A DNA stretch of 14,422 bases, from the IMG/VR virus record IMGVR_UViG_2681813315_000020; one strand, given 5' to 3'. The translations under genes and the position numbers were made by a program. Source of the stretch: a virus (lineage: Duplodnaviria > Heunggongvirae > Uroviricota > Caudoviricetes). Shown here piece after piece: positions 1 through 14,422 of this stretch. The notes beneath the pieces are model-generated. The model was not told the origin of the DNA. It made no database searches and saw only the letters and a list, made by a program, of their open reading frames with translations. Position 1 is the stretch's first letter, and every line of letters begins with the position of its first letter.

Positions 1-102
1 ATACTCATAACTAATTGAATTTAAACGACAAATAATATCTTAGATAACTTTAAAAATCGCAAAATGACTACACCAGTAACTACACCGTTCGGTGCACTGT
101 AT

Positions 103-130
103 GAAACAACGTGGAACAAATAGACACAAG
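103..130. repeat. Three 10-bp-phased GAACAAC-like repeats (GAAACAAC / GGAACAAA / GACACAAG), same motif family as arrays at 7092-7123 and 13111-13173
   Basis: Read directly: atGAAACAACgtGGAACAAAtaGACACAAG. The 12-mer ACAACGTGGAAC (107-118) is the exact reverse complement of GTTCCACGTTGT at 13154-13165. Confidence 0.6.
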
Positions 131-612
131 AAATATACAGGCGGGTCATCTTTCCAGGGGAAAGCACGCCAATTCATGAGGGGCGTTAATGTCGATATGG
201 GGATCCCCATAACGGGGCTACCTGGCTTTTTTTCCGGTTAAATGTCAATCAGGCTGGTGGGTTTTACATACCCTTGATCACCGTAATGATGATTCAGATC
301 TGCACCTTTCCACCAATGGTGGAAAAGCCCACAGCAGGCCGCCCAGCCTCCCCCAATGGGGGATTGTGGAAGAATCAACGGGTTAGGCCTTAATCATCTG
401 CGTAATCATAAGTAATCATAATGTTCATTCATCCAGCGCAATTTTGCGTTATCGGGAATATCAAACAGTTACCGCGCCGACTTCCTCAAATTGAGGTTTC
501 CGAAAATATCAGCGGGTTAGCGATTAAGCTGACCATTAATTAAACTGCGAAAATGTCGTAGTTGTGAGGGGTGTAGCCAACCCATTTTTGGACCGTCGGG
601 AATATCAACCAG

Positions 613-906
613 TTACCGCCGCAACCGCTCCGGCTTCTTCCAGTGGTAAGTAATTTTTTCTTTCTCCTGGTACATCTCCACGCGGCGACGATATGACAAC
701 AACTCCAGAACTCTGGTGCGTATATTGCGTATATCCACGCCGTTAAGCTCGATACCGTCACGGCGCATCACCTCAGCCACCACACGCGCGTAATTTTCGG
801 CTATCACGCTGTCCGGCTGCGTGGCCTCCTGTTTGCCTGCTTCCTGGCTGATTCCGGTAACGCGGCGGATTATTTTTAGTAGTTCGGTTTCGCTCATTCT
901 CGTCAT
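613..906 (-). CDS. Hypothetical 97-aa protein, translationally coupled to terL (ATGA stop/start overlap)
   Basis: ORF MTRMSETELLKIIRRV...; its ATG (906-904) overlaps the terL TGA (905-903). No family recognised by eye. Confidence 0.5.
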   Translation of the reverse strand: MTRMSETELLKIIRRVTGISQEAGKQEATQPDSVIAENYARVVAEVMRRDGIELNGVDIRNIRTRVLELLSYRRRVEMYQEKEKITYHWKKPERLRR

Positions 907-2564
907 ACCCCATCAAACGCCGCAAGCCGCTCTTTGTGGCTGTCGCTCATATCGAATGCAAAATCCTCGTGCTCTGCCTGGAATGTGCCAAACGCCATCA
1001 GCGCCGCAACGCTCGGGTCTATCTTGTTGGATGATTTTTTCTTGTTCGGCTTGATATTGGCGTTCGCGTCACTCTGCATCACAACATTACTCATTGACCA
1101 GGCCAGCACCGGATCGCCACGATGCACAATCACCTTCCGGTTAACAAAAACTTCGAACGATTTCGCCGCCGGACTGAAACGAAGGTATGTTTGCGGGAAC
1201 GGCTCCACCTCAAATCCTGCCCCCTGTAGCTGCGTCCTCAGGTGCGTGGCGTTCCATGTATCGAAGCCCACCAGCCTGATATTGAAATTCTCTGCATCCG
1301 CCATGATGTCATCACGGATACGGTCATAATCAATGCAGTCACCCGGTGTTGTGCGTATCCAGCCCGCCTTTACCCACTGGCGATAGATGGCGCGGTTTTT
1401 ATTGGCGGGGTTCTGTAGCTGAAATTCCGGCAGATAGTGACGGGAAACCAGCATAATCTTTTTACCGACCGGAAAGGCATAGCACACGCTGGAAATATCG
1501 CTGGTTGATGATAAGTCCAGCCCCGCGTAGCACTCCTGACCGTATAAATCCGCCTCCGCGAACGTTCCGGCGCACTCCGCCCATGCACCGTTACCCATCC
1601 ACGGCGTAGCCCCCTGACACCAGATATTGAATCGCTTGGTGAGCATTTCCACCTACTGCGACGGAATACCCCGCGCTTTCTGGATGGTTGAGGCCAGTTT
1701 TTCACGATCGACGGAAACATCGATATTGGGATTCGCCTTTATCCACATCGCCGGATCGTCAACCTCGCTTTCATCATCCAGCTCGTAAATCAGCACGAAC
1801 ATGGATTCGTTCACCTCTTCACCATCCAGTATCTGGCAGCAATAGTCATAGTGTTGTTTACAGGCTGAAACAACGTTGCTCCCCGATGTGGTGATGGCAA
1901 ATAACAGCCCCTCCGGACGCGCCCCCATTCCCAGTTCAAGCGCGGAATAAACCCCGTTGTCAGGGTGCAGGTGATATTCATCCACAATGGCAAGACTCGG
2001 GTTTGTACCTTCAATGGTTGCCGCTTTTGCTGCCAGTGGCTTTAACAGGCTGTTGGTTTTCGGGTGTATCACCTTGTGTGCCTGAATATTTACCCGCTTT
2101 CGTAACGGTCGGGATAAAAGGCACATCTGACGCGCATCATCAAACACGATCCGCGCCTGATCACGACTCACGGCGGCGGTGTAAATATCCTGCTGCCCGT
2201 TTTCCATAACCAGAAACCAGTTAGCCAGGATAGCGGCGACCGTGGATTTGGCATTTTTTCGCGGCACTTCAATGAATGCGCTGGTGTATTTGCGCCGTCC
2301 GGTGGCCTTAACCTTAAAGCCCAGGATGCACGCAAAGGCGAACTGCTGCCACGGCTCCAGCTCAATGGGGCTACCGCGCATTGCGCCTTTTACGTGCGGA
2401 CACACCCTGGAAAAGGCAATAAACCGCTCCACGACCTCCGGATCGAACGTGTAAAGGGGGTTTTCAAGGTCAGAAAAATACCGTTTAACGGCCTGTTTCA
2501 GTCGTTTACAGGCCGTAATTTTGCCGTTTTTTACGCCTTCTGCGTACTCATGCCAGGCGGTCAA
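903..2564 (-). pseudogene. terL: Terminase large subunit (HK97-like TerL) interrupted by an in-frame TAG at 1653-1655; N-terminal ATPase fragment 1656-2564, C-terminal nuclease fragment 903-1652
   Basis: ORFs 1653..2564 and 903..1652 are contiguous and in the same frame (...KARGIPSQ-TAG-VEMLTKRFNIW...). The N-terminal part carries a P-loop-like motif (VPRKNAKST) and TerL-like N-terminus; the C-terminal part resembles the terminase nuclease domain. Combined about 553 aa, typical TerL size. Apparent TTG start at 2564 preceded by AGAGGA; overlaps the terS 3' end. Confidence 0.75.
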
Positions 2565-2904
2565 GCTCGTCCTCTTCCTCTGTTTCCGGTGGATTTCTGC
2601 GGCGACTTACCGGGTCAAAACCCAGCAAAGAAGCCATTTTGATCATTATTCTTTCAGCGTCAGCCTTTGCGCTCAGGGCGGGGTTTCTGCTCTCGCTGCC
2701 CTGACTGTTAACAATGCTGAACCCGCGCGTGGCAAGGTCTTCGACGGCTTTGCGGTATATGGAGTAGTTAACGCAATACAGCTCCAGATTGCTCCAGTCG
2801 GCGGGGGTAAGGTCTTCCCGTCCGGAAAGCTGGCGCGATTTTTCCTTCCACTGCCTGACCGCGATTTCATCCAGGTAAGCGGGGGCTTTTGGTGGTCTTG
2901 CCAT
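2548..2904 (-). CDS. terS: Terminase small subunit, P27-like family
   Basis: Translation from the internal ATG at 2904 (MARPPKAPAYLDEIAVRQWKEKSRQL...GFDPVSRRRNPPETEEEDELD) matches the typical P27-family TerS N-terminus and acidic C-terminus. Lies immediately upstream of terL. Confidence 0.8.
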   Translation of the reverse strand: MARPPKAPAYLDEIAVRQWKEKSRQLSGREDLTPADWSNLELYCVNYSIYRKAVEDLATRGFSIVNSQGSESRNPALSAKADAERIMIKMASLLGFDPVSRRRNPPETEEEDELDRLA

Positions 2905-3192
2905 GTTCTTTTTTCGCCCAATTATTTTCAAAAAAATTCCCGTGCACAAAAATTTGAGGAGGCGGTCGGTGTCCGGCAGGGACGGTTTCGTCCTGAAAAC
3001 CACCCCCACCCCCTCTGACGGCCTCACCAGCGATTGCGAAAACATTCCATGACCTCGCGGTCACGGTCGGTTAATTGCTTCGCTGTGGTGCGTTCTGTGC
3101 GCCCTGTCCTGTTGGCTTTGTGCCCTGTCTCCTGTGTCTTCCATAAGTCACGCTGCCTTATCAGTCCACGTATCAGCCTGGTTTGCTCCTGT
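2905..3192. other. Candidate cos/packaging-site region between HNH and terS
   Basis: 288-bp gap in an otherwise tightly packed operon. Contains direct repeats GTGCGCCCTGTCCTGT (3098-3114) and GTGCCCTGTCTCCTGT (3120-3136), inverted repeat TGACCtcgcGGTCA (3049-3062), hairpin GGACGgtttCGTCC and C-tracts. In HK97-type phages cos lies between the HNH gene and terS. Confidence 0.35.
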
Positions 3193-3633
3193 TCAGTCAT
3201 CATCGCCATACATCCAGTCGTTACGGTGTGCTGCCCGTTCTTCCTGCTCGCGATACATGCCCGCCTTACGGTTCGCTTTCGTGGCTGGATCTTCCCGTGT
3301 CGTCTTACGGTTGTGGCACGTCTGGCACAATGCCTGGTGGTTCCACTCAGGCCAGAAGAGAACATCACCGCCGCCATTGATGGGGATGATGTGATCCACC
3401 ACAAGAGCTGGCGTATAAATCCCCTTAGCCAGACAACGCACGCATAACGGGTTTTTGCTCAGGTACAGGGCGCGGTATTTGTCCCACTGTCGGGAATACC
3501 CGCGCGCGCGGCGGTGTCCCCGTCTGGCATCCTCTGCACGCCATACAGCCCGTCTGTGCTCTTCACACTTGCCGGACTTCACGCGCTTATTACAGCCCGG
3601 CTCAGTGCATCGCCTTAATGGTTGCCACGGCAT
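3193..3633 (-). CDS. HNH endonuclease (phage packaging-associated)
   Basis: 146 aa with Cys pairs and the HNH core ...VVDHIIPINGGGDVLFWPEWNHQALCQTCHNRKT. Start overlaps the connector stop (TGATG). Sits directly upstream of terS as in HK97-type HNH-dependent cos packaging. Confidence 0.85.
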   Translation of the reverse strand: MPWQPLRRCTEPGCNKRVKSGKCEEHRRAVWRAEDARRGHRRARGYSRQWDKYRALYLSKNPLCVRCLAKGIYTPALVVDHIIPINGGGDVLFWPEWNHQALCQTCHNRKTTREDPATKANRKAGMYREQEERAAHRNDWMYGDDD

Positions 3634-3935
3634 CAGTACACCCCCACATCACGATAAACCGACCAGAGCGCAGAAATAGCCATAGGCAGTTCAGACTGCT
3701 CCACTGGTGAAACTGCTTCCCTGTTCTCGTACAGGAAAGCGATGTACATCAGGCAACCAACACGCATTGCCGGGGTAAATTCCAGCCCGTCTTCAAAACG
3801 TTTCCCGATATGCTTCTGGCAGGCTTCCAGCGCCGCATCGGTATACATTTTCAGAAGTTCGCCTTCACCGGATAAATCATCATCAAGTCGAAGATGTGCC
3901 CTGACTTCATCAGGTGTAATTCTGGCTTCACTCAT
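3633..3935 (-). CDS. Head-tail connector protein (gp6-like)
   Basis: Start at internal ATG 3935 with SD AAGGGAGA: MSEARITPDEVRAHLRLDDDLSGEGELLKMYTDAALEACQKHIGKRF..., typical N-terminal signature of gp6-like connector proteins. About 100 aa. Confidence 0.65.
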   Translation of the reverse strand: MSEARITPDEVRAHLRLDDDLSGEGELLKMYTDAALEACQKHIGKRFEDGLEFTPAMRVGCLMYIAFLYENREAVSPVEQSELPMAISALWSVYRDVGVY

Positions 3936-5142
3936 CTTTTCTCCCTTTAATTTCCACAGTCTGTTTCCATGCCTGGCTGAACTCATCACCACCTTCACGC
4001 GGCGGCATACCCTCGCGTTCGCGAGCTTCGTTCGGATTCATGATCCCGCTCTTAATCCCTTTCTCATACGTGGCATAACGTTCGGTGGGTGTGGCGCGCA
4101 GTAAATCGGCTGAATCAAACTCAACCAGATAACGGGTACCAGGTACGGGAGAAGTCACCAGCAAAGCGGCCTTGATTTGCTGTTCGAAGTTCGCCAGCCA
4201 CGGGCGCATTGTCATGGTCAGAAATGCGCGGCTCGCCTCACTGAAATTGCTGTAGGTGCTGTTGCTGTATTCCTGAAGAAAAATCGGCGACACGTTGAAC
4301 ATCCTGGCGATGTCTTCAATGGAGAAGCGACGGGAGGCCAGCCATTCCGCATCCTGGTTACTCATCCCCAGCCGCCTGTAATCCATGCCCCCTTCAAGGA
4401 TTGGCGTTTTTCCGGCATTTTTCGCCCCCTTGTAGCGTTCCAGTGCGTCTAATGCCTGTTTACCTTTCACGCCGTCCAGCCATTCACCTGACGTGATAAT
4501 CCCTGCCGCCATCATGCCATCTTTCATAATGCTGGCTCCGTGGCGCTGTTGAGCAAGGCCAAGCCCCAGCGCCTCACGGCAAATCGTGACGGGGGAACGC
4601 CCCAGAAAGCCATCATCCGAGGCATAGCGGAGATGCAGAACTTCTTCCTGTAAATACGTGCGCACCGTTCCTGTACAGGGTTCGGTGATGGTATAGCGGT
4701 ATTTGTGTGTGCCTGTGCGTTCCGGTACAACACACCCCGGCGCATAAGGATGAAGTGATTTTGGCTGCCCGTCCCGCCCCCACTCAATAACCGCATAGGC
4801 GTTACCGTTCAGCAGGCAGTGACGCATCATTGTGCGTTTAAACTGGTAAGGTGTCAGGCACGAATTAGGCTGCTCATTCAGCAGAATATCTACCGGGTGA
4901 CTGTCCAGCCATTCCCGCGCCTCTCTGCCCTTATCATTGCGTACCAGATACAGGTAACACGGCATCGTGGCCACCGCCTCAGCGATGACAGAAACCGCGT
5001 TCATCACAGCAGGCAATGATTCAGCCGTCCCGGCAGAAACATATTCTCCGGATCCGGTATTTGGTACACCAGACAACGCCAGAAAATCATCAATGGACAG
5101 GTTACGCAGATCGCTTTTTTTACGACTAAAAGGCCACCACAT
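3928..5142 (-). CDS. Portal protein, HK97 family
   Basis: About 404 aa from ATG 5142, 1 nt after the protease TGA. Portal-like segments: HPVDILLNEQPNSCLTPYQFKRTMMRHCLLNGNAYAV..., ...FSIEDIARMFNVSPIFLQ..., ...TMTMRPWLANFEQ... Confidence 0.85.
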   Translation of the reverse strand: MWWPFSRKKSDLRNLSIDDFLALSGVPNTGSGEYVSAGTAESLPAVMNAVSVIAEAVATMPCYLYLVRNDKGREAREWLDSHPVDILLNEQPNSCLTPYQFKRTMMRHCLLNGNAYAVIEWGRDGQPKSLHPYAPGCVVPERTGTHKYRYTITEPCTGTVRTYLQEEVLHLRYASDDGFLGRSPVTICREALGLGLAQQRHGASIMKDGMMAAGIITSGEWLDGVKGKQALDALERYKGAKNAGKTPILEGGMDYRRLGMSNQDAEWLASRRFSIEDIARMFNVSPIFLQEYSNSTYSNFSEASRAFLTMTMRPWLANFEQQIKAALLVTSPVPGTRYLVEFDSADLLRATPTERYATYEKGIKSGIMNPNEAREREGMPPREGGDEFSQAWKQTVEIKGRKDE

Positions 5143-5143
5143 A

Positions 5144-5704
5144 TCACAACCCCGCCAGTTCAGCCCAGCGATGACGATTATTTCCTGCCGGGCGTAATTC
5201 AGGGTACTGTGCAAACAACGAACGGTGGGCAATCTCCACGCCGGATTCGGGATAAGCAGGCATCGATGTTATCGTGATTTCACGGAGTTCTGCTGCGGTT
5301 ACAGTACGCAGATACGGTTTTTGCGCGATATTCCACTCCTCGCATAATGCGCGAAAGCCAAAGCTCATTCCTGTAATATCGCCACGTTCCACCAGCGTAA
5401 GCACATCTTTTCCAAGCTGGGTATTTGGCGGTGTCAGTTCAAAACGTAGCCCGGTGTTATCCTCAGTCAGTACCAGTGAGCCGGATTTGGTACGCCCCAG
5501 CAGTTGGGTATAGTCATGCTCATACAGACAGCGCACATCATTACCTGCCGCCAGATAGTCAGCAAAAGCCCCCGGCGTGAACTGTTCGCGAAACTCGTCC
5601 CAGATAATTTCTGAAAGGCTGTTCCAGCGAACGGCATAACCCACCAGTTTTTTATCGCTGGCGGTCAGTTCAGATGTACGGATTTCAAAATCGGTGTTTT
5701 TCAT
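5144..5704 (-). CDS. Prohead maturation protease, HK97 family (S78-like)
   Basis: Start at internal ATG 5704 (SD GGAG 7 nt upstream): MKNTDFEIRTSE...LVGYAVRWNSLSEII...GMSFGFRA...LREITITSMPAYPESG, matching the conserved blocks of HK97 prohead proteases. Confidence 0.8.
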   Translation of the reverse strand: MKNTDFEIRTSELTASDKKLVGYAVRWNSLSEIIWDEFREQFTPGAFADYLAAGNDVRCLYEHDYTQLLGRTKSGSLVLTEDNTGLRFELTPPNTQLGKDVLTLVERGDITGMSFGFRALCEEWNIAQKPYLRTVTAAELREITITSMPAYPESGVEIAHRSLFAQYPELRPAGNNRHRWAELAGL

Positions 5705-5753
5705 CGGTGTACTCCATAAAGCTGAAAAAGGAGGCCGAAGCCCCCTTTGCTCA

Positions 5754-6899
5754 TTACTTGCCAGCCTGAATTTCCAGAATCTTGATGGCGTTCGAATCCA
5801 CCACACCACCGCCCAGATATTTCTGGGTATAGATGTTAATGAATCCAGGCTCGCTGAAATCCGGACGGGTACGCGTACCGGTTTTATGGTCAACGATGAA
5901 ATAACCGCGCTTAAAGTCACCGACTGCAATCACACCGTCTGGCATAAATTCCAGATATTCAACCGGAAGCCCCAGCAGAGAATCAGGATCACCAGCCTGT
6001 AAACGATCGCGCCAGATGTAATCACCAGTGGCATTTTTCAGTTTTTGTGCGGAGGCGGCTGTATTTGAGTTCATCACCCATACAGCTTTTTTGCGGTACT
6101 TATTGCGCAGCGTAAATTTCAGGTCAATCAGCATATCGGCGCTGAGACTGCCAGTCACTTTTTTCGTCTGGAGCGTACCGAAAGGACGGGTTTTGTCATT
6201 ATCCGTAGCGCGCGGGAAAGTCAGGAAACCTTTGGCTTTTTTCTCGCCATCACCGGAAACCAGATCCGTTTCTTCGGTATCAACGAAAGTGTCGCCAATT
6301 TCAGAAGATAACCAGCCCATAATATCGACTTCGGAAAAATCGATAATTTCCTGAGTGGTTTTCGGGTAAGCGTAGATCGGATACAGGCGGATACTGACTT
6401 CATTCAGTTTTGGGGTTGCCGTCTGGTTACGTGCCGCACCTTCTTCGCCGTGTCCCACGACCGCACCCCCGGCAGAAACCAGTTGCTTAAATTCATTACT
6501 GTGAATGGTTTTAACAGTACAGATTTTACGCATCACCGACTCATCAGAAAGCTGACGCATAATTTCTCTGTTCAGTTCCGGGATAACCGTATAACCACCA
6601 TCAGCCGGAACACTGCCGGACAGGTTGCGGGTTTCCCCGGTCAGAATGTAAGAGCGTAGCTCATTTTTGGTGATTTTATCTTCGACGGGAACACCAGGCT
6701 GGTTACGTTCTTCATCAGCCACAGACTCGAGGCGGGAAATTTCTGTGTCGAGGGAATCGGCTTTTGCACGCAGTTCATCAAACTGTTTGCCTTCGTCATC
6801 GGTTAGACTGCGGTTTTCACTGTCGGCTTTTTCCAGCAGGGATCGCATCTGGTTTTTCAGGGCGGTTTTTTGCTGGCGGAGTTCGATTAATTTCTTCAT
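5754..6899 (-). CDS. Major capsid protein, HK97 fold, with N-terminal coiled-coil (delta/scaffold-like) domain
   Basis: 381 aa. N-terminal about 100 aa predicted coiled coil (MKKLIELRQQKTALKNQMRSLLEKA...). Body has HK97-family capsid blocks (GHGEEGAARNQTATPKLNEVSIRL..., ...DLVSGDGEKKAKGFLTF...). Confidence 0.85.
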   Translation of the reverse strand: MKKLIELRQQKTALKNQMRSLLEKADSENRSLTDDEGKQFDELRAKADSLDTEISRLESVADEERNQPGVPVEDKITKNELRSYILTGETRNLSGSVPADGGYTVIPELNREIMRQLSDESVMRKICTVKTIHSNEFKQLVSAGGAVVGHGEEGAARNQTATPKLNEVSIRLYPIYAYPKTTQEIIDFSEVDIMGWLSSEIGDTFVDTEETDLVSGDGEKKAKGFLTFPRATDNDKTRPFGTLQTKKVTGSLSADMLIDLKFTLRNKYRKKAVWVMNSNTAASAQKLKNATGDYIWRDRLQAGDPDSLLGLPVEYLEFMPDGVIAVGDFKRGYFIVDHKTGTRTRPDFSEPGFINIYTQKYLGGGVVDSNAIKILEIQAGK

Positions 6900-7054
6900 G
6901 AAGGTTTTCTCGCATTGGTTAAGATTCAGGACGTGAAACCAACACGGGGGGAGCGCCGCCCGACACTCTCGGCATCTCGCAGATCAACCCGGCATCGCGC
7001 AGGGGGTCAGGCGGCATTGTGGCGGCTCACGTCTGAGTGCCACACGCCAACATA

Positions 7055-7082
7055 TACATAAAAATCAGTATGTAAACATCAA
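7055..7082 (-). promoter_or_regulatory. Candidate sigma70-type promoter for the head/packaging operon
   Basis: On the minus strand: TTGATG (7082-7077) - 16 bp - TATGTA (7060-7055), immediately downstream of the GTTGTTC repeat array and upstream of the capsid gene with an about 150-nt GC-rich leader. Hexamers are imperfect; prediction by eye only. Confidence 0.3.
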
Positions 7083-7091
7083 CCAGAATCA

Positions 7092-7123
7092 CCGAACAAC
7101 CTGGAACAACCACGAACAAATAA
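7092..7123. repeat. Three 10-bp-phased GAACAAC repeats (minus strand GTTGTTC) between the terminator and the packaging-operon promoter
   Basis: Read directly: ccGAACAACCtgGAACAACCacGAACAAAt; same motif family as 103-130 and 13111-13173. Confidence 0.6.
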
Positions 7124-7142
7124 TTTACAAAACCTGAAAAAA

Positions 7143-7163
7143 GGCCCGGAAAAAATCCGGGCC
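7143..7163. terminator. Bidirectional rho-independent terminator
   Basis: GGCCCGG-aaaaaat-CCGGGCC, flanked by an A-tract upstream and T-tract downstream on the plus strand; on the minus strand it follows the stop of the 7173..7421 gene and precedes TTTTTCAGGTTTTG. Confidence 0.8.
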
Positions 7164-7172
7164 TTTATCGCT

Positions 7173-7421
7173 TTATTGTTTCACTGGCTCCCGCATTCTG
7201 CGTCTTATTTTCCACAAATATTCGATCATCGCTTCCACCTGCTCACGGTTGGTTGCGAAAATTTCCCCGGTCAGTGAGCTACGCAGAAAATCATGATGAT
7301 CCACAAAAAATAACGCATCGGAAGAAAGCAACCGACGATATTTTTTTGCTGTCGTGGTTTCCAGATCATCAAAACCATGAAGCTTTTTATGTTGCTGAAC
7401 TTCTTCAAATGTCACTGGCAT
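7173..7421 (-). CDS. Hypothetical 82-aa protein
   Basis: ORF with strong SD (AAGGGGGA) before ATG 7421; start overlaps the 3' end of the FinO/ProQ-like gene; followed by the terminator. No family recognised. Confidence 0.5.
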   Translation of the reverse strand: MPVTFEEVQQHKKLHGFDDLETTTAKKYRRLLSSDALFFVDHHDFLRSSLTGEIFATNREQVEAMIEYLWKIRRRMREPVKQ

Positions 7422-7942
7422 GTATCCCCCTTTGCTGCCCGGCGCTGGCGCTTGTGCTTCTCATTCAGCACCATCAGCCGTGTTTCTGCCTCCTGCTGTT
7501 CCTGTGGTGTCACTTCCCCACATGGCTGGCCTTTCAGATCGTAACGTGCGCCACCAGCTATCAGGGCGCGGTAATAGCGCGGAGACTGCGCATAGGATGC
7601 CAGCGTCGCACGTAATACCCCCGGCCCGAATGCCAGCCCCCTGACGGCGATATCCTGCATCAGGTCGTCGAATATCCCCACCTTAAGCGGCTTCGGTGCT
7701 TTATGGCTGAATAAGTCAGGCCACATCTCAGTGAGGCGGTTAACGCGTCGGCGGTTTTTGCGCTGCCTTTTGGTCATATGCTGCCACGGTGTCGCCCCTG
7801 TGGGCTTCTGCTGTGCGTTCTGATTGCCGGGTATCACTTTATGCGCCGATGTGGTTTTATCCTGCTCTTGCGCCGCCTGCGTCGTTTTCTGCGGCGTGCC
7901 GTAAATGCCTTTCGGCTTCCGGTTAATGGTCAGCGTTGTCAT
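7412..7942 (-). CDS. FinO/ProQ-family RNA-binding (RNA chaperone-like) protein
   Basis: 176 aa; region WPDLFSHKAPKPLKVGIFDDLMQDIAVRGLAFGPGVLRATLASYAQSPRYYRALIAGGARYDLKGQPCGEVTPQEQQEAE matches the conserved ProQ/FinO N-terminal domain pattern (PLKIGIFQDL...LR.AL..YT.S.RY...G..R.DL.G.P.GE). SD GGGGAAGG before ATG 7942. Confidence 0.65.
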   Translation of the reverse strand: MTTLTINRKPKGIYGTPQKTTQAAQEQDKTTSAHKVIPGNQNAQQKPTGATPWQHMTKRQRKNRRRVNRLTEMWPDLFSHKAPKPLKVGIFDDLMQDIAVRGLAFGPGVLRATLASYAQSPRYYRALIAGGARYDLKGQPCGEVTPQEQQEAETRLMVLNEKHKRQRRAAKGDTCQ

Positions 7943-7978
7943 GCCTTCCCCTGTAATTACTCTGTTCGCTGTTGTGAA

Positions 7979-8404
7979 TTAAAACGGTATGTTATCCCCG
8001 TACGGGTCATCGTGCTGGCTTGTCTGTTGTTTTGCCCTGTTCAGTGCGTCAGTGGCCTGGCCCTGTTGACCTTTTTTGCCGCCCGGTCGCGCCGTTCGCG
8101 CACTGATTACGCTGTCTGCAATAACCTGCCAGCCCCGCTGCGTTTCCCCGTTCTGGCCTGTCCACTGGCTCACCTGCATGTTACCCGCCACGCTCACCAG
8201 TTCGCCTTTGTGGTGTTTTGCCAGTGCGTCGGCCTGTCTGCCAAACGCCAGGACAGATAACCACATCGTCGCCGTTCCGTCATCTGCCTGGCTGCATGGC
8301 AGGGGAACCGCCATACTCGCCATCGCCATTTGTGTCCCCTTGCTGGTGGTCTTTAACTGCGGGTCAGCCACCAGCCGCCCGTAAGCCGCTATCTGTGCTG
8401 TCAT
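7979..8404 (-). CDS. ssb: Single-stranded DNA-binding protein
   Basis: 141 aa; OB-fold-like N-terminal region (AAYGRLVADPQLKTTSKG...WLSVLAFGRQADALAKHHKGELVSVAGNMQVSQWTGQNGE), Gly/Gln-rich linker and acidic C-terminal tail ending DDPYGDNIPF, cf. the canonical SSB DDDIPF tail. Confidence 0.8.
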   Translation of the reverse strand: MTAQIAAYGRLVADPQLKTTSKGTQMAMASMAVPLPCSQADDGTATMWLSVLAFGRQADALAKHHKGELVSVAGNMQVSQWTGQNGETQRGWQVIADSVISARTARPGGKKGQQGQATDALNRAKQQTSQHDDPYGDNIPF

Positions 8405-8646
8405 GCTGTCTGCTCTCCGGTTTTAACGTTGATGGTTGTCACCTGTTCCGCTTCGGCAATCTCCCGTTCTGTCAGTGTGGCAAAGTTTGCCGCTGCCGTG
8501 GTCATGAATGCGCTTACCAGTTCGGGATGTGCTTTTGCGTACCCTTCTCCCGCGTTGCGGTCGATGATTTTTATCGCCACCCTCAGCCAGTGTTCTGTCA
8601 AATCAAGGGCGTGAGATTGTGTTTTTTTTGCGTGCTGCGTTGTCAC
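8401..8646 (-). CDS. Hypothetical 81-aa protein between the origin and ssb
   Basis: ORF overlapping the ssb start (ATGA-type coupling). No family recognised. Confidence 0.45.
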   Translation of the reverse strand: MTTQHAKKTQSHALDLTEHWLRVAIKIIDRNAGEGYAKAHPELVSAFMTTAAANFATLTEREIAEAEQVTTINVKTGEQTA

Positions 8647-8691
8647 AGGCTTTACCTCACAGCAATAAAATAAAATTTTTGCATTTTAACC

Positions 8692-8920
8692 CTTCACCTG
8701 TTCACCTTTTGAGATTTTCCCTTTTTATTCATAATGTTAAGGGGTGAACAGTTTCACAAAAACTATTCACCAACTGTTCACCACTGTTCACCCTTAAAGC
8801 TCAATAAATAATCAAAAAGGTGAACAGTGAATAGTTTGGTGAACAGTTCACAAATAACTGTTCACCCTATAATGTACTGATATAAAAGATATTTATAACA
8901 GGGTGAACAGTGGTGAACAG
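8692..8920. repeat. Iteron array (about 12 copies of GGTGAACAG / CTGTTCACC in both orientations) with adjacent AT-rich tract 8663-8690; candidate replication origin
   Basis: Read directly: cttcaccTGTTCACC, GGGTGAACAG, tattcaccaaCTGTTCACCaCTGTTCACCc, aGGTGAACAGtgaatag...GGTGAACAGttcac...CTGTTCACCc, GGGTGAACAGtGGTGAACAG. Lies immediately 3' of the primase/helicase gene, the usual place for satellite and plasmid origins. Confidence 0.75.
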
Positions 8921-8933
8921 TTATTCCATAAGT

Positions 8934-10748
8934 TTAATTTTTGCTGTCGTCATTTGTGACCGATGCACATGATGGCATCCAGTCTTCTGAATCCTCTGTC
9001 AGTGTCACATTTGAACGCAAACCGTGCTTCGTTTTCCGTTTTATATACTCCCTGCCATATTCCGCCATTGCCCCCGGCATATCTTTACCGAAGCGCGTCA
9101 GTGTTACAGGTTTACCGAATCCGTGTGCCCTCATATATGCCAGATAGGCGTGATAAAGATACCTGCGCGGACTGAACGGAATAATTTCGGCATTACCCAC
9201 TAACAGACCATCACACATTACCGACGACATGAGATAGCCACAGAAGTCCACCAGCGAATCGCCCTCGCGTTTTATCACCAGAGCTTCTTCTGATTTCTGC
9301 TGCTCATACAGCAGGCGTTTAGCTTCGTCCTGGTCAGAAAAACGAGTAAGCAGATGGCGAATCACAACCGCCAGCTCTCCTTCTATTTTTTCTGCCAGCA
9401 TGGGGTCGCGCTCGTTCTCCGGTACAACCTCCGAAAAATTGAATATCACCCGACGACGTGAGATCCCCCCGCTGCGGTCACTGAATGACATGGCGTTATT
9501 GTTCACCGCCAGCACGACCGCCTGAATGCGTGTTGAGTAGGGGGCTTTATGCTTCGGGTCGATTGCCACCTTGTCACCGCCTGTAATAGCCTTAATTCCT
9601 GCGCCATCACCAGCGTAGCGGGTCATATCCGGCATGATAATCAGCGAAAAGCCAACCACTAACGCGCGTTCCCTTGCATCTTCCAGCGCCTTCATGCTTG
9701 CCGATACTGTGTTGGCCTTACCCGCCAGCATGGTGCAAATCTCCGCCATCACGCTTTTACCACTTCCCCCTGGACCTGTTACCTCAATGAATAACTGCCA
9801 GTCGTACCGGTTCGCCAGCACCATGAATAATGCAGCCAGCACGCGATCCGTCTTGCGGTCATTCTCTGCCACCGAGCAGCGTAACCACTTCCAGAAATTC
9901 GGCGCATGTGTTGCCAGCGTTTCCCCCTCTGCTGGTGGGCTGAAAGGTAATTCACTGGCAATTAACAACCAGTCGTTTTTGTTATGCTCCCGAAAATTAC
10001 CTGTTCTGGTATCAAATACCCCGTTACTGAATCCAATCAGGTTACGGGCTGTATTCCCCATTACAGGCAAACTTAACTTCATGGTATCGACCGCCGATTT
10101 AATGGCGTTCTGCGAATAGCTGATCTCCGCATCAATGAAAATCTGCGCCATAGCACGCTGTAACTCTTTATCCTGAATCGGCTCCCATACAACGCCGTTG
10201 TAATGGTGAACAGTGTCAGAGTCGGCATGAATCGCCAGTTCACCGCCATAATGTGCCAGGAGAACTTCGCCGCGCTGGCTTGCTCCCATCTGGTTAAGCG
10301 CCAGTGGTGCGGCGCTGTCTTCTGTTTTTTTCTTAACAGGAAGCTGAATCACCAGACCATCAGAAAGATTCTGGCGCTCACGGGCCAGATATTCGCGCCA
10401 GTTCTGCACCTCCTGGCCGTGCATACCCTCAGGATAAAAATTTGCATCCTGTACGCCTGCCGCCGCCAGCTTCTGACCAATCGCCTTTATCATTACTGGC
10501 GCAAGATATCCGGCCCTGAATATGCGCACGGATTTTCTGCCTTCCGGCACAATTTGCAGCTTATCCAGTTCGGATAACTGCTGCTCCCCAAGCCACACAG
10601 GAGGCTCATTATCTCCGGCCATACGCGCGTCATGTTCCTGCCATTGTTTTGCGTGTGACCAGGCATCACTACCCGCAAAAATAATGACTTCTGTTTCTTT
10701 GTGTTTTATGCCGCGTGACTGCTGTTTTACGTTCGGTGCCAGTTTCAT
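8934..10748 (-). CDS. Replication initiator: primase/helicase-type protein with D5_N-like region and P-loop NTPase domain
   Basis: 604 aa; Walker A FIEVTGPGGSGKSVMAE; upstream region resembles the D5 N-terminal-like domain found with phage/plasmid primase C-terminal NTPases. Stop codon abuts the iteron array. Confidence 0.8.
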   Translation of the reverse strand: MKLAPNVKQQSRGIKHKETEVIIFAGSDAWSHAKQWQEHDARMAGDNEPPVWLGEQQLSELDKLQIVPEGRKSVRIFRAGYLAPVMIKAIGQKLAAAGVQDANFYPEGMHGQEVQNWREYLARERQNLSDGLVIQLPVKKKTEDSAAPLALNQMGASQRGEVLLAHYGGELAIHADSDTVHHYNGVVWEPIQDKELQRAMAQIFIDAEISYSQNAIKSAVDTMKLSLPVMGNTARNLIGFSNGVFDTRTGNFREHNKNDWLLIASELPFSPPAEGETLATHAPNFWKWLRCSVAENDRKTDRVLAALFMVLANRYDWQLFIEVTGPGGSGKSVMAEICTMLAGKANTVSASMKALEDARERALVVGFSLIIMPDMTRYAGDGAGIKAITGGDKVAIDPKHKAPYSTRIQAVVLAVNNNAMSFSDRSGGISRRRVIFNFSEVVPENERDPMLAEKIEGELAVVIRHLLTRFSDQDEAKRLLYEQQKSEEALVIKREGDSLVDFCGYLMSSVMCDGLLVGNAEIIPFSPRRYLYHAYLAYMRAHGFGKPVTLTRFGKDMPGAMAEYGREYIKRKTKHGLRSNVTLTEDSEDWMPSCASVTNDDSKN

Positions 10749-11032
10749 TTTTTACCCCCTGCGACCAGCATTTCACGAATTTTGCGGATATGACTTGCTG
10801 CACGTTTCTGATTTACGGCTTTACGATGGCCCACCAGCGTGAAATCACGCCGGAACTGATAAACAGGCATCACGCAGTCATATTCGTAGCCATCACGGCG
10901 GTAAGTGATGCGCCGTTCTGCCACGCCTTTTATCGTTACCGTGCCGCCATAGTTATCCCGGAAAATATCGCCGGGGCGGATTTCAGGCCGAGCGGGGCCG
11001 CTGGCAGTAAAGCCAGAAATTTTCTGTTTCAT
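10745..11032 (-). CDS. Hypothetical 95-aa protein, translationally coupled to the primase gene
   Basis: ORF whose stop overlaps the primase ATG (ATGA); 5 nt after the stop of the upstream gene. Confidence 0.5.
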   Translation of the reverse strand: MKQKISGFTASGPARPEIRPGDIFRDNYGGTVTIKGVAERRITYRRDGYEYDCVMPVYQFRRDFTLVGHRKAVNQKRAASHIRKIREMLVAGGKK

Positions 11033-11037
11033 GGTTT

Positions 11038-11265
11038 TTATTCCGCGTTTATTTTTTTATCGTGAATTTCGATCGCTTTATTTAATTCGACGATTACCGT
11101 ATCGAGTAATGAAATAAACGCACCAGCAAGATTAGACTCACGCTCATCTTCCGGCGCATCACTTAAACCATCAAGCCAGATAAGAAATATTTGCCTCAAA
11201 CATTCACTGTTAGTCAGTGCGTTTTCTGCATGGCTCATTGATTTAAGATAACGGTCATCATGCAT
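11038..11265 (-). CDS. Hypothetical about 75-aa protein
   Basis: ATG at 11265 preceded by GGGGG (MHDDRYLKSMSHAENALT...); overlaps the stop of the upstream gene (ATGATGA context). The track ORF extends to 11310 but that start lacks an SD. Confidence 0.4.
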   Translation of the reverse strand: MHDDRYLKSMSHAENALTNSECLRQIFLIWLDGLSDAPEDERESNLAGAFISLLDTVIVELNKAIEIHDKKINAE

Positions 11266-11494
11266 GGTGCACCCCCTGAATATCTGCGGTAAGAATTTTG
11301 CCTGCCTCATTCAGCGCCATATCAGCACTAAATTGCATAAGAGCCAGTGAGTGAGGAACGAAAGCCCCGGCATATTCTGTTTCGCTGGTGGCGTGCTTAT
11401 GCGCCTTGTCTGCGATAACAGAAATATCAATCAGCGCGTGCATCAGCGTTTTGATGGCTTCGGCGGCTGCGTCCGGTGTGGTTTTATTGTGCAT
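11258..11494 (-). CDS. Hypothetical 78-aa protein
   Basis: ATG at 11494 preceded by strong SD AGGGGGAAA; overlaps the 3' end of the upstream gene. Confidence 0.5.
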   Translation of the reverse strand: MHNKTTPDAAAEAIKTLMHALIDISVIADKAHKHATSETEYAGAFVPHSLALMQFSADMALNEAGKILTADIQGVHHA

Positions 11495-11774
11495 AGGTTT
11501 CCCCCTGGCGAATACGGGCAGCGAATACCATCACGCAGCCATCAGGAGATTGCTGACGCGCTTCCTGTTCGCTGGTGGCCTCAATGGTAATCACGCGCGG
11601 TTGTGCCGTGCTCAGGGCAATAAAACGCCAGATGTATTTATTCAGGTTGTACGAGTCCCGCCCTTGCGGGTGTCTGGTATAATTTCTCATAGCTGCCTCG
11701 ATACGCTTTCTATCGTTGGTGGTTAGACGCCCTGCATGTGTGCCACCACTGCGGGGCGTTGTTGTTTGGTGCAT
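11484..11774 (-). CDS. Hypothetical about 96-aa protein, first gene of the replication operon; weak, unverified resemblance to Icd-like small proteins
   Basis: First ATG is at 11774 (MHQTTTPRSGG...YIWRFIALSTAQPRVITIEATSEQEARQQ...VMVFAARI); the longer track ORF would need a TTG start at 11861 inside the divergent promoter. Family guess is from memory only. Confidence 0.35.
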   Translation of the reverse strand: MHQTTTPRSGGTHAGRLTTNDRKRIEAAMRNYTRHPQGRDSYNLNKYIWRFIALSTAQPRVITIEATSEQEARQQSPDGCVMVFAARIRQGETYAQ

Positions 11775-11859
11775 CGCACCATTCGGTTTTAACCTATCAA
11801 TAAGTGAATCGCACCTCAAGCCTTTCTCTGAAATTTTTTTGTGTATACTGAATCGCACC
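11771..11859. promoter_or_regulatory. Divergent promoter/operator region with three ATCGCACC direct repeats
   Basis: gcATCGCACC (11771-11780), gaATCGCACC (11806-11815), gaATCGCACC (11850-11859). A good -10-like TATACT at 11844-11849 lies just before the third copy, upstream of the plus-strand RHH gene (SD AGAGAGGA, ATG 11880). Confidence 0.4.
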
Positions 11860-11879
11860 AACTTAGAGAGGATTCAGTA

Positions 11880-12059
11880 ATGGCAACAGGTTCAACAAAT
11901 AATAAGTCGCAACAGTTAAATGCCAGATTCCCGCATGATGTTGTTGCAGACTTAGAAAAAAATTTAGATGAAGGTGAAAGCAAGGCGCAATTTATAGTTA
12001 CTGCCGTTAAAGGTGAGATCAAACGCCGCCAGCGCCGCAAGGCCAAAGAGCAGGAGTAA
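11880..12059 (+). CDS. Small ribbon-helix-helix (Arc/MetJ-like) DNA-binding protein, candidate regulator
   Basis: 59 aa from ATG 11880: MATGSTNNKSQQLNARFPHDVVADLEKNLDEGESKAQFIVTAVKGEIKRRQRRKAKEQE; pattern of a short beta-strand (LNARFP) followed by two helices and a basic tail resembles the Arc repressor (FNLRWPREVLDLVRKVAEENGRSVNSEIYQRV). Confidence 0.5.
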   Translation: MATGSTNNKSQQLNARFPHDVVADLEKNLDEGESKAQFIVTAVKGEIKRRQRRKAKEQE

Positions 12060-12650: not shown

Positions 12651-12854
12651 TTAGTGAACTGCCTCGCGGCTGTCCTTCCATGCCAGAACTTCGGATAAAG
12701 ACCAGCCAACGGAACGACCGCCGAGTTTACGCCGTGATGGGAATTGTCCAGTCTTCTCCAGGCGATACCGACATGAGCGGCTCAGGCCTGTAAGTTGCTG
12801 ACATTCTTTTTCACGTATAAAGCGATCAGCGCTTAACACTATTGCCTCCGTCAT
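12651..12854 (-). CDS. alpA: AlpA-family transcriptional regulator / excisionase-like winged-helix protein
   Basis: 67 aa (or 62 aa from GTG 12839, preceded by GGAGG): ...DRFIREKECQQLTGLSRSCRYRLEKTGQFPSRRKLGGRSVGWSLSEVLAWKDSR, matching the AlpA signature (R.....TGLSRSTIYRL...G.FP...KLG.R.V.W...EV..W). Downstream of and co-oriented with int as in CP4-57 (intA...alpA). Confidence 0.8.
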   Translation of the reverse strand: MTEAIVLSADRFIREKECQQLTGLSRSCRYRLEKTGQFPSRRKLGGRSVGWSLSEVLAWKDSREAVH

Positions 12855-13110
12855 TTCTCAAAGAGTCATTTGGTGTCTTATTGTGTCGTATTGTTCCCGC
12901 TAGAGTGATGAATGGCAAATATTGGTGACGGTCGTTTTACAGATATGGGGTAATTAGAATAAAAATACTTTTAATTCATTGTGATGTAGTAGCGTAAAAT
13001 TTTGCTTTTACGCCTTTTTTACATATTTTTAAGAGTGATTCGCCAGTGTATAAAAAAACAGTGTACATATAAAAATCAAATGGTTATGAATGAGTTTGAT
13101 TTTTAATCCG

Positions 13111-13173
13111 CTTGTCCCATTTTGTTCCTTGTTGTTCGTCGTTGTGTCTCGTTGTTCCACGTTGTGTCCGTTC
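13111..13173. repeat. Six tandem 10-bp-phased GTTGT(T/G)(T/C)C repeats between the int stop and alpA
   Basis: Read directly: CTTGTCCCat TTTGTTCCtt GTTGTTCGtc GTTGTGTCtc GTTGTTCCac GTTGTGTCcg. Opposite orientation to arrays at 103-130 and 7092-7123; shares an exact 12-mer with 103-130. Confidence 0.65.
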
Positions 13174-13192: not shown

Positions 13193-14422
13193 TTATATTT
13201 CTCTGGCTATTGGCAGTGTGGTTACGTTTTCGTGAGTACCCGCCAGTATCTCTAACCGCTCTGTCCACATGTCCAGCGCATTACGTTTCGCATCGAGATA
13301 ACGGGAGTGGTTATAGACTCGCTGCATCCCTGGCATCTGGTGAGCGGTGAGTTGTTCGACAATATGCGGATCCACGCCTAAATCGTTCAGCATCGTGGTA
13401 AACGTGCGCCGTATATCGTGTAGTGACCAGTGCGGATGGTTTAATTTTTTGTGCGTGAATCTGCCGTATTGCGACACGCTGGCTTCCTGTTTCAGTTCCC
13501 CGAGTAATAGTCCTGTGTGTCGGTTCTGCTCCACCAGCCGTGTGACGAACGGTAAAATGCTTTCCGGTATTGGCCTGAATATGGCGACCTTCGTTTTGCT
13601 GTGCTCCTTCGGTACTGTCCAGAGCATTTCCTTAAAATCCCACTCCCTGATCTCCGACAGCCTCAGTTCTCCGGTTCGGCAACCAAACACAATCAGGAGG
13701 CGGATTAGTGCGCTGTAGTAGGGCGGGAATATTTTTTTATCCAGCGCCTGTAATAATTCGCCCAGTTCTTTGTTACTAAGCACGCGTTCGCTTATGCCCG
13801 GCTTTTTGCCAACGTCCACCACGTTGAGATCATCCAGAACGTTACTGACTGCGTAGCGACGTTTACGGCAGAACTTAAGCGCCTGTTTACACGCCTGCAT
13901 CATGTGACCAGACGTTACGGGGGATTTTTTGCGTATCCGGTCAAAACAGGCCAGCCAGTGACGTAATTCGCATTTATCCAGTGGCATGTTACCGATGTGC
14001 TGTATGACGTGATTATTCAGGCGACTTTTCAGGCATACATAATCGACACGGTTTTCCTTTACGTGCGTTTCCAGCCAGTAACTGATCGCATCGCCAACCG
14101 TTACGGGTTTTAACGCTTCCTGCACAGTGTAGTTCAGTTCATGACGTGGGTTTTTCCCTTCTGCCAGCCATGCACGACACTTTGCGGCTTTTTCCCTGGC
14201 TGCTTTAAGGCTCAGATCGGGATAGTTTCCCAGCTTCAGGCGTTCCGGTGTGGTATCCCTTCCCGTTCCAGCCCTGTAGGTGAAGTACCAGGTCAATTTA
14301 CCTGATGTTAAATATTTCACGCTCAGATTACCGCCATCGCTATAGAACGTATTTTTCTCCGCTGGCTTACCATAAAGTTTTCTTAACAATGTATCGCTCA
14401 GTTTGTTAAGCGCTCTGCTCAC
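13193..14422 (-). CDS. int: Tyrosine integrase, P4/CP4-57 type, with N-terminal arm-binding (DUF4102-like) domain; 5' end at or just beyond the window edge
   Basis: 409 aa reaching the window edge, where the first codon is GTG. N-terminus LSDTLLRKLYGKPAEKNTFYSDGGNLSVKYLTSGKLTWYFTYR resembles the P4-type integrase N-terminal domain; C-terminal catalytic region has HDIRRT and VYNHSRY (tyrosine recombinase His-x-x-Arg and Tyr motifs). Confidence 0.9.
   Translation of the reverse strand: MSRALNKLSDTLLRKLYGKPAEKNTFYSDGGNLSVKYLTSGKLTWYFTYRAGTGRDTTPERLKLGNYPDLSLKAAREKAAKCRAWLAEGKNPRHELNYTVQEALKPVTVGDAISYWLETHVKENRVDYVCLKSRLNNHVIQHIGNMPLDKCELRHWLACFDRIRKKSPVTSGHMMQACKQALKFCRKRRYAVSNVLDDLNVVDVGKKPGISERVLSNKELGELLQALDKKIFPPYYSALIRLLIVFGCRTGELRLSEIREWDFKEMLWTVPKEHSKTKVAIFRPIPESILPFVTRLVEQNRHTGLLLGELKQEASVSQYGRFTHKKLNHPHWSLHDIRRTFTTMLNDLGVDPHIVEQLTAHQMPGMQRVYNHSRYLDAKRNALDMWTERLEILAGTHENVTTLPIAREI

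Follow-up and report, generated by a model that had tools for sequence, protein, structure and literature searches.

The window, the whole stretch of 14,422 nucleotides that was analysed, is a capsid-forming PICI (cf-PICI) related to EcCIEDL933, the prototype of these islands (bioRxiv 10.1101/2022.09.08.507074). Every gene lies on the minus strand (Table 1), and the packaging operon starts with the capsid gene, followed by those for the protease, portal, connectors, HNH protein, terS and terL. In E. coli chromosomes, DNA near-identical to the window sits between phoQ and roxA, the same site that EcCIEDL933 occupies in O157:H7 EDL933. The window is a mosaic: positions 52-11732 are 99.6% identical to locus L001, and the int-alpA part shows 85% identity to L001 but 99.2-99.5% to L019 and L020, and 100% identity to L001 applies to the 701-bp query around the repeats only.

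Table 1. Genes, promoter elements and repeat arrays of the island discussed in the text.
Feature	Position	Strand	Remarks
int	13193-14422	-	
Six units, exact 10-bp spacing	13112-13168	+	just downstream of the int stop codon; opposite orientation to the capsid array
Three units (TGGTGTC, TTGTGTC, TTGTTCC), 10-bp spacing	12871-12897	+	over the predicted alpA promoter
alpA	12651-12854	-	62-67 aa; winged-helix, AlpA/Xis type; Pfam PF05930 Phage_AlpA, 3e-18
Primase/D5-type helicase gene	8934-10748	-	SSB gene next in order
Iterons, 9 exact TGTTCACC	8699-8919		just downstream of the primase gene; none at 7090-7130
ProQ/FinO-like gene	7412-7942	-	
82-aa ORF	7173-7421	-	
Intrinsic terminator	7137-7166	-	ends the upstream accessory/early operon
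Anchor TTGTAAATTA	7121-7130	-	near-invariant; contains the TTGTAA unit
Fourth unit, TTGTAA	7130-7125	-	11 bp before the first TTGTTC
Three TTGTTC units, exact 10-bp spacing	7119-7114, 7109-7104, 7099-7094	-	proposed AlpA operator array
Predicted sigma-70 promoter, capsid/packaging operon	7049-7076	-	-35 TTTACA 7076-7071, 16-bp spacer, -10 TATGTT 7054-7049
Invariant hairpin GTGGCACTCAGACGTGAGCCGCCAC	7019-7043	-	at the predicted transcript 5' end; fold -13.8 kcal/mol
Structured leader, ~120 nt	7018-6900	-	between the hairpin and the capsid ATG at 6899
Major capsid gene, HK97-type	5754-6899	-	ATG at 6899; Pfam Phage_capsid, 7e-61; annotation of a near-identical island
Three units (TTGTGTC, TTGTTCC, TTGTTTC), 10-bp spacing	103-129	-	far attachment arm

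The terminator consists of a GGCCCGG stem (7163-7157), an ATTTTTT loop, a CCGGGCC stem (7149-7143) and six T residues (7142-7137). A simple terminator scanner missed this hairpin, but the RNA fold shows it (-21.7 kcal/mol, z = -4.47; none of 200 shuffles was as stable), confirming the first-pass annotation in its placing of the array directly after the terminator of the upstream operon. The combination TTTACA-16-TATGTT, a 9/12 match, was the sole promoter-like match returned by a promoter scan of positions 6600-7500. A weak -35, TTGATG, had been proposed before and taken as a sign of activator dependence. The scan and the conservation in relatives support TTTACA instead, with TTGATG lying 6 bp upstream and unconserved, and since the conserved -35 matches at five of six positions it is not weak here, nor is the core promoter of this window a poor one. 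In some relatives the -35 is weaker, being TTTACC in EcCIEDL933 and TTTTCT in L002 and vB_KppS-Ant. Six bases separate the -10 from the hairpin GTGGCACTCAGACGTGAGCCGCCAC, three base pairs of which are altered on both sides in the EcCIEDL933 lineage. An Rfam search of the region returned no family match, only sub-threshold chance matches.

On the minus strand the repeat region reads ttTTGTAAattaTTTGTTCgtgGTTGTTCcagGTTGTTCggtg. Four direct repeats in a single orientation follow one another, TTGTAA and then, at +11, +10 and +10 bp, the TTGTTC units, which over 7120-7091 read TTTGTTCgtg, GTTGTTCcag and GTTGTTCggt. The array had been described as three GTTGTTC repeats at 10-bp spacing; the phasing stands, but only two copies of the 7-mer are exact (7104-7110 and 7094-7100), TTTGTTC (7114-7120) making up the third, and the interval 7055-7123 allotted to the array leaves the fourth unit outside. 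If transcription starts near 7043, as predicted, the units span about -51 to -87 (the three TTGTTC units at about -51 to -76) and not at -45 to -76 as first placed. Fourteen variable bases separate 7091 from the -35 at 7076, and the array ends ~17 bp upstream of the -35. As a raw count in the window, GTTGTTC is not significantly enriched (5 observed, 2.4 expected). Exact 6-mer triples at 10-bp spacing occur at two places in the window, both formed by the TTGTTC motif, and were obtained in 1 of 1000 dinucleotide shuffles, while TTGT-N6-TTGT-N6-TTGT gave six matches at three loci against 0.01 expected. These counts, together with the conservation described below, exclude chance as the origin of the phasing.

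Of 5,426 complete E. coli genomes, 484 matched the 701-bp query around the array. Most of the ~350 E. coli records that lacked a long match aligned in one piece only, query 290/295-351, corresponding to window 7089/7094-7150, a 57-bp block with the repeats. The stretch TTTTGTAAATTATTTGTTCGTGGTTGTTCCAsGTTGTTC in EcCIEDL933 and in the tqsA island is identical to the window at 38 of 39 positions; in both islands divergence has affected the terminator, the spacer between array and promoter, and the leader, and other genes lie upstream (PerC-like in the two islands, ProQ and the 82-aa ORF in the window). IMG/VR yielded 62 further loci with 38 distinct upstream regions, and all fetched loci together gave 26 distinct promoter blocks. 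A capsid-protein search of genome contigs gave a single useful locus (Rosenbergiella), which ends before alpA.

Across these promoters TGTAAA and the hairpin are nearly always 86 bp apart; the EcCIEDL933 type has 88 bp between them and class B 98 bp. Of 32 distinct 126-bp promoter segments, 25 have the anchor, always 86 bp ahead of the +1 hairpin. The anchor and unit 1 form the most conserved block, TTTGTAAATTATTTGTtC, and the anchor is kept even where the downstream units switch class, the TTACC class included. A gapless alignment of 10 non-redundant promoters showed conservation of TTTGTAAATTATTTGTtC, the TTC of unit 2 and the tGTT of unit 3, and further of TTTACaT (-35), ATgtATAT.TTgA (-10 region, TAnnnT) and the hairpin. 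In relatives, then, the array keeps its place upstream of the -35 in a fixed 86-bp register, counted to a start that is a predicted one. A motif search in related elements had been proposed as a check on the first-pass annotation, and the block proved to be conserved across diverged cf-PICIs. As far as alignments can tell, the capsid promoter is a stereospecific architecture under selection.

Units phased at 10 bp occur at four places in the window, namely the capsid promoter, the far attachment arm, the int-alpA spacer and the alpA promoter, and the pooled consensus of ~20 units is TTGT(T/G)(T/C)C. Those downstream of int read TTGTCCC, TTGTTCC, TTGTTCG, TTGTGTC, TTGTTCC and TTGTGTC, and equivalent arrays are conserved in EcCIEDL933 and strain 2015C-3121. 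The only promoter-like site at alpA has a predicted -35 TTGCCA (12918-12913), a 17-bp spacer and a -10 AACAAT (12895-12890); the three units here overlap the predicted -10 and start region and sit in a 29-bp block that is identical in three islands. A distance of 16 bp separates the far-arm array from the direct repeats GGTGTAGTTAC / TGGTGTAGTCA (86-65) that follow it and are probable integrase sites; in related islands four units stand beside GGTGTAGTTAATGGTGTAGTTAA in the int-proximal arm, just upstream of int. Units adjoin integrase-type repeats in the far arm of the window and in the int-proximal arm of relatives. When three complete islands from two integration sites were scanned, phased units turned up at the far arm, capsid promoter, int-alpA spacer and int-proximal arm and nowhere else. 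The earlier remark that the motif occurs at two other sites was right about its recurrence and too low in its count: exact GTTGTTC at 13131 and 13151 are members of the six-unit array, and the copy at 13351 is a lone match within int.

One comparison links the class of repeat to the regulatory module. L035 and L051 are 96% identical to L047 over 12 kb, a stretch that begins with the gene after alpA and runs through the packaging module. L047 encodes AlpA and has the units TTGTTC/TTGTTC/CTGTTT at its capsid promoter, whereas L035 and L051 encode a 64-aa HTH_17 Xis-type protein at the alpA position and carry four TAACC/TTACC-type units, with one extra DNA turn, at theirs. The far attachment arm of L051 holds ATTACC-N4-GTTACC beside GTATCCCCAGA repeats, and the third HTH_17 element, L031, has TACC-type units and GTACT repeats upstream of the HTH_17 gene. 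The L035/L047 pair differs also in int, part of the ORF6N gene and the RHH repressor, so the swap is not specific to AlpA alone. AlpA proteins only ~45% identical occur in islands with identical TTGTTC arrays, and vB_KppS-Ant has an AlpA-like protein but TTGTAT/GTTTAC/TCTTAC units, which resemble the TGTTCATC array beside its own alpA. The covariation between repeats and AlpA is imperfect, with the diverged AlpA variants and vB_KppS-Ant weakening the argument; relaxed specificity is typical of these proteins of the excisionase or recombination directionality factor (RDF) type (PMC7498355). The helper-embedded relatives encode a separate Xis-like protein in addition to an AlpA-like one. Their full phased TTGT-N6-TTGT-N6-TTGT array is found at the capsid promoter only, the int-proximal arm having a single TTGTTC followed by degenerate T-rich units, an arrangement that fits a division of labour between the Xis-like and AlpA-like proteins.

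The gene beside int encodes a winged-helix protein of the AlpA family (PF05930), which also matched the PDB sequence 8c3t, 'AlpA family phage regulatory protein' (E 5e-7); we found no literature on PDB 8C3T. Pfam, this sequence match and published models agree in assigning AlpA to the Xis-like winged-helix proteins. Other proteins were considered as binders of the array. Int is unlikely, as TTGT-type arrays adjoin four different integrase-type repeats (GGTGTAGTTA, GTGTAGTCAA, GTGTGGTCAGT and TGTATAAACA). The replicase was rejected because islands with D5-type primase, DUF927 or RepA replicases all carry the array unchanged, and the gene downstream of alpA because it encodes unrelated proteins in islands that have TTGTTC repeats in common. 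Nor do the packaging proteins qualify, being 96% identical between L035/L051 and L047 where the repeats differ, and the upstream neighbours (ProQ/FinO, the 82-aa ORF and PerC) are not conserved among array-bearing islands. The RHH gene (YlcI/YnfO), named as a candidate in the first-pass annotation, has to be abandoned: it has palindromic operators of its own, unlike the capsid-promoter repeats, and between L035 and L047 its N-terminus and these operators were exchanged together in a local swap. Because Int, the replicase, the packaging proteins, RHH and the neighbouring genes all fail, the AlpA family is the only DNA-binding family that tracks the motif.

What is known of AlpA agrees with such a role. 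In Gram-negative PICIs and PICMIs it is a master positive regulator that is auto-activating and needed for excision and transfer (PMC6092414; bioRxiv 10.1101/2022.09.08.507074; PMC10803314; PMC11773190). In PICIs the protein is needed for induction and activates downstream genes as well as its own promoter (PMC6092414; bioRxiv 10.1101/2022.09.08.507074), and in PICMI, a related satellite, it is necessary and sufficient for excision and has a TorI/Xis-like fold (PMC10803314). Direct repeats spaced by one helical turn are the binding sites of RDFs, of which Apl, Cox and Vis act on promoters as well (PMC7498355). In the searchable PICI literature we found no defined AlpA binding site and no promoter analysis of a cf-PICI packaging operon. 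The suggestion that an island regulator, possibly AlpA, acts here gains from the comparative evidence, in that a phased and conserved block recurs at the attachment arms and at alpA and switches class with the AlpA module; AlpA as the binder and activation as the effect are what we infer from it.

We therefore lean, with slightly better than even confidence, towards the array being an operator for Xis-like AlpA that activates the packaging operon, in a manner comparable to promoter regulation by P2 Cox, 186 Apl and P4 Vis. That the effect would be activation is suggested by the position of the array upstream of the -35, by the role of AlpA as a positive regulator (PMC6092414) and by the production of EcCIEDL933 capsids from a strain overexpressing alpA (bioRxiv 10.1101/2025.02.11.637232). 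AlpA would accumulate when a helper phage induces alpA, or spontaneously, and its monomers would bind TTGT(T/G)(T/C)C units head-to-tail and cooperatively, one helical turn apart. At the attachment arms the protein would assist excision, and around alpA it would feed back on alpA expression. At 7094-7130 a filament would run along a single helical face, at about -51 to -87 from the sigma-70 promoter, and by bending the DNA and/or contacting RNA polymerase it would increase transcription of the capsid, protease, portal, HNH and terminase genes. Strict dependence on an activator is doubtful, because the core promoter is a 9/12 match and cf-PICI tail-less capsids are reported to form without helper phages (bioRxiv 10.1101/2025.02.11.637232).

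It is also conceivable, though we think it unlikely, that AlpA or an analogue binds the array to repress or to play an architectural part, delaying or limiting capsid synthesis, stopping read-through out of the upstream operon, or forming loops with the other arrays. For the most part Apl and Cox act on promoters as repressors (PMC7498355), the capsid core promoter is decent by itself, and in L002, L037 and vB_KppS-Ant the array precedes a terminator hairpin that abuts the -35. The same units also cover the -10 and start of the predicted alpA promoter, where they look repressive, although AlpA is reported to be auto-activating. Against repression, the capsid array ends ~17 bp before the -35 and overlaps no promoter element, its 86-bp register is fixed, as face-of-helix contacts would need, and AlpA is genetically positive, in line with the capsids obtained on alpA overexpression (PMC6092414; bioRxiv 10.1101/2025.02.11.637232).

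Quite unlikely in our view, the block could mainly be a curved, UP-like element or a binding site for a nucleoid protein of the host, such as a Fis site at GTAAATTATTTGTTC, giving stimulation independent of the island and possibly nucleating an AlpA filament. The anchor and unit 1 form this AT-rich 15-mer with G-N13-C, which presumably resembles the Fis consensus GNtYAaWWWtTRaNC, and in lambda attR Fis nucleates Xis. The most conserved columns are exactly TTTGTAAATTATTTGTtC and survive a change of repeat class; retention of the anchor in the TTACC class hints at a second, class-independent factor. The reported formation of capsids without helpers would also suit such a stimulus (bioRxiv 10.1101/2025.02.11.637232). 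However, a Fis or UP-like element leaves unexplained both the recurrence of TTGTkyC at the attachment arms and around alpA and the change of units 1-3 with the regulator module, and position -4 of the putative core is mismatched, with a centre near -78 that is not a classical position for activation by Fis.

That the array is instead a site for a late regulator of the helper phage, timing capsid synthesis as P2 Ogr does on P4 Psid, seems highly improbable. Satellites often borrow helper regulators, and island induction depends on the helper (PMC6092414). Yet the TGT-N12-ACA dyad of P2 Ogr and P4 Delta late promoters, expected near -55, is absent near 7050-7130 (the only two matches in the window are at 1855 and 3312), the known helpers are lambdoid and lambdoid late genes use antitermination, helper-free capsids have been reported (bioRxiv 10.1101/2025.02.11.637232), and the motif belongs to the island's own attachment arms and alpA region and changes with the island's regulator module.

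We give almost no credence to the repeats being replication iterons, a cos/pac site or a functionless chance or relic repeat: phased repeats are typical of origins and terminase sites and TGTTC is common to the array and the TGTTCACC iterons, on which we found nothing relevant in the literature, but these iterons (of the P4 type of origin) form a separate cluster, the array persists with three unrelated replicases and has no link to replicase type, the packaging genes of L035 and L047 are 96% identical although their repeats differ, and the linear vB_KppS-Ant record, if its ends are taken as the packaged ends, starts 22 bp ahead of terS and stops beyond the HNH-side ORFs, placing its ends between the HNH-side small ORF and terS and not at the capsid promoter.

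With AlpA-dependent activation as the preferred reading, the arrangement can be compared with known systems. P2 Cox with its cox boxes, 186 Apl and P4 Vis are likewise small winged-helix proteins encoded beside int, and the P4 late promoter PLL is activated by P2 Cox. These proteins recognise arrays of 3-7 direct repeats spaced 10-11 bp apart, one set lying in the attachment arm by the integrase sites and a second at promoters, to which they bind cooperatively and with low specificity (PMC7498355). They differ from the present case in that the array here lies upstream of the -35 of a morphogenesis operon and not between early lytic and lysogenic promoters, and in that the protein is of the AlpA family (PF05930) and not of the Cox/Apl group, with an effect that is presumed positive. 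In lambda the Fis F site overlaps X2, and here, similarly, the possible Fis-like 15-mer overlaps the first units. Unlike the role proposed here, lambda Xis is not known to act as a late-gene activator. Head-to-tail units one helical turn apart are shared with the X1-X1.5-X2 filament of lambda Xis in attR, which is bent (PMC7498355). The AlpA of EcCICFT073, EcCIEDL933 and PICMI satellites is of the same family and holds the same position after int.

The AlpA of Pseudomonas aeruginosa is a different matter. It shares with the island protein a name and the character of a positive promoter regulator only, and its Q-like antitermination model was set aside since that protein is different and much larger and its site lies between the -35 and -10, whereas the PF05930 protein here has 62-67 aa and its proposed array stands upstream of the -35. 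P. aeruginosa AlpA contacts DNA through residues 128-142, binds GGGACG between the -35 and -10, needs a sigma-dependent pause and acts on a downstream terminator (PMC7969949, PMC9371919).

More tentatively, and with rather less than even confidence, we propose that a single low-specificity AlpA box (TTGTkyC, repeated at one-turn intervals) wires together excision at both attachment arms, AlpA expression and the capsid/packaging operon, that the box is swapped as a cassette with the regulator module, and that a second, class-independent input may act through TGTAAATTA/the Fis-like core and the invariant 5' hairpin. If this is true, the class-independent input could explain the helper-free capsids.

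The motif and its five predicted locations per island are new relative to the searchable AlpA literature. Genetics has established AlpA as the master switch of Gram-negative PICIs, its DNA target is undefined in that literature, and the five predicted sites per island make the coupling of capsid expression to induction testable. The arrangement bears on why cf-PICIs release tail-less capsids without helpers and on how regulatory and packaging modules stay matched through mosaic recombination, and the motif may be useful for annotating satellites and for engineering cf-PICIs as DNA-delivery particles.

The position of the upstream-operon terminator at the capsid promoter differs among the islands. 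In the window, it precedes the repeat array. In three related loci (L002, L037 and vB_KppS-Ant, L075), it is found between the array and the -10 element, ~45-20 bp upstream of the latter, and its T-tract takes the -35 position. Both layouts maintain the register of 86-87 bp between the anchor and the 5' hairpin. Further into the capsid and packaging genes, terS, portal and protease are annotated as frameshifted in RefSeq in an island near-identical to the window (L001, 4752-7905).

Features located in the window
Feature	Coordinates	Strand	Description
Capsid mRNA leader	6900-7043	minus	Predicted transcript; 5' end is the invariant hairpin GUGGCACUCAGACGUGAGCCGCCAC
Origin-like region	8690-8925		Cluster of TGTTCACC directly 3' of the primase/helicase gene
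Repeat/palindrome region	11770-11870		Two copies of GGTGCGATTCA and the palindrome GGTGCGATGCACC
Hairpin with T-run	12992-13013	plus	GCGTAAAA/TTTTACGC, within the int-alpA spacer

The capsid leader had no family match in Rfam. In the lineage of EcCIEDL933, both partners of three base pairs in its 5' hairpin are altered, and a conserved helix (GGUUUC...GAAACC) encloses the stretch immediately 5' of the start codon. GACGUGA, in the leader hairpin, is complementary to UCACGUC further downstream, and EcCIEDL933 has a matching pair (CCAGGACGC and GCGUCCUGG), which points to alternative pairings in the leader RNA.

Arrays and hairpins were also found around alpA, the gene of the AlpA/Xis-type regulator. 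In vB_KppS-Ant, the interval from the int module to alpA contains two long arrays of 10-bp units (7125-7335), far longer than those of the E. coli islands, the first with ~11 units (CATTCAACAG, CACGTAACGA and similar) and the second with ~6 units of TGTTCATC. Two islands with another AlpA variant carry GAAC-N6-GAAC(AA) units 5' of alpA (L011, 14490-14535; L022, 1505-1545). The L011 units sit within a hairpin with a 10-bp stem, which is followed by T7 and directly abuts the alpA start, and it resembles a terminator through which transcription would have to pass for alpA to be expressed. The hairpin in the int-alpA spacer of the window is terminator-like for transcription antisense to alpA.

The origin-like region contains nine exact copies of the octamer TGTTCACC and a tenth that differs at one position. 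The copies occur in both orientations and on either side of AT-rich DNA. We take this octamer to be the P4 type I iteron, the target of the alpha protein. An equivalent cluster is present in vB_KppS-Ant (11720-11960).

The repeat/palindrome region separates two divergent units, an Icd-like operon on one side and a small plus-strand ORF (YlcI/YnfO, of the RHH type in relatives) on the other, and probably serves the RHH repressor of the island as its operator. Between L035 (2306-2584) and L047 (5060-5350), two islands that are 96% identical outside the exchanged segment, the part of the RHH gene that encodes the DNA-binding N-terminus has been swapped jointly with the palindromic operators of this gene (TGTAGACA type versus GTGTATAC type). 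The N-terminal part and the operators together form a compact specificity cassette.
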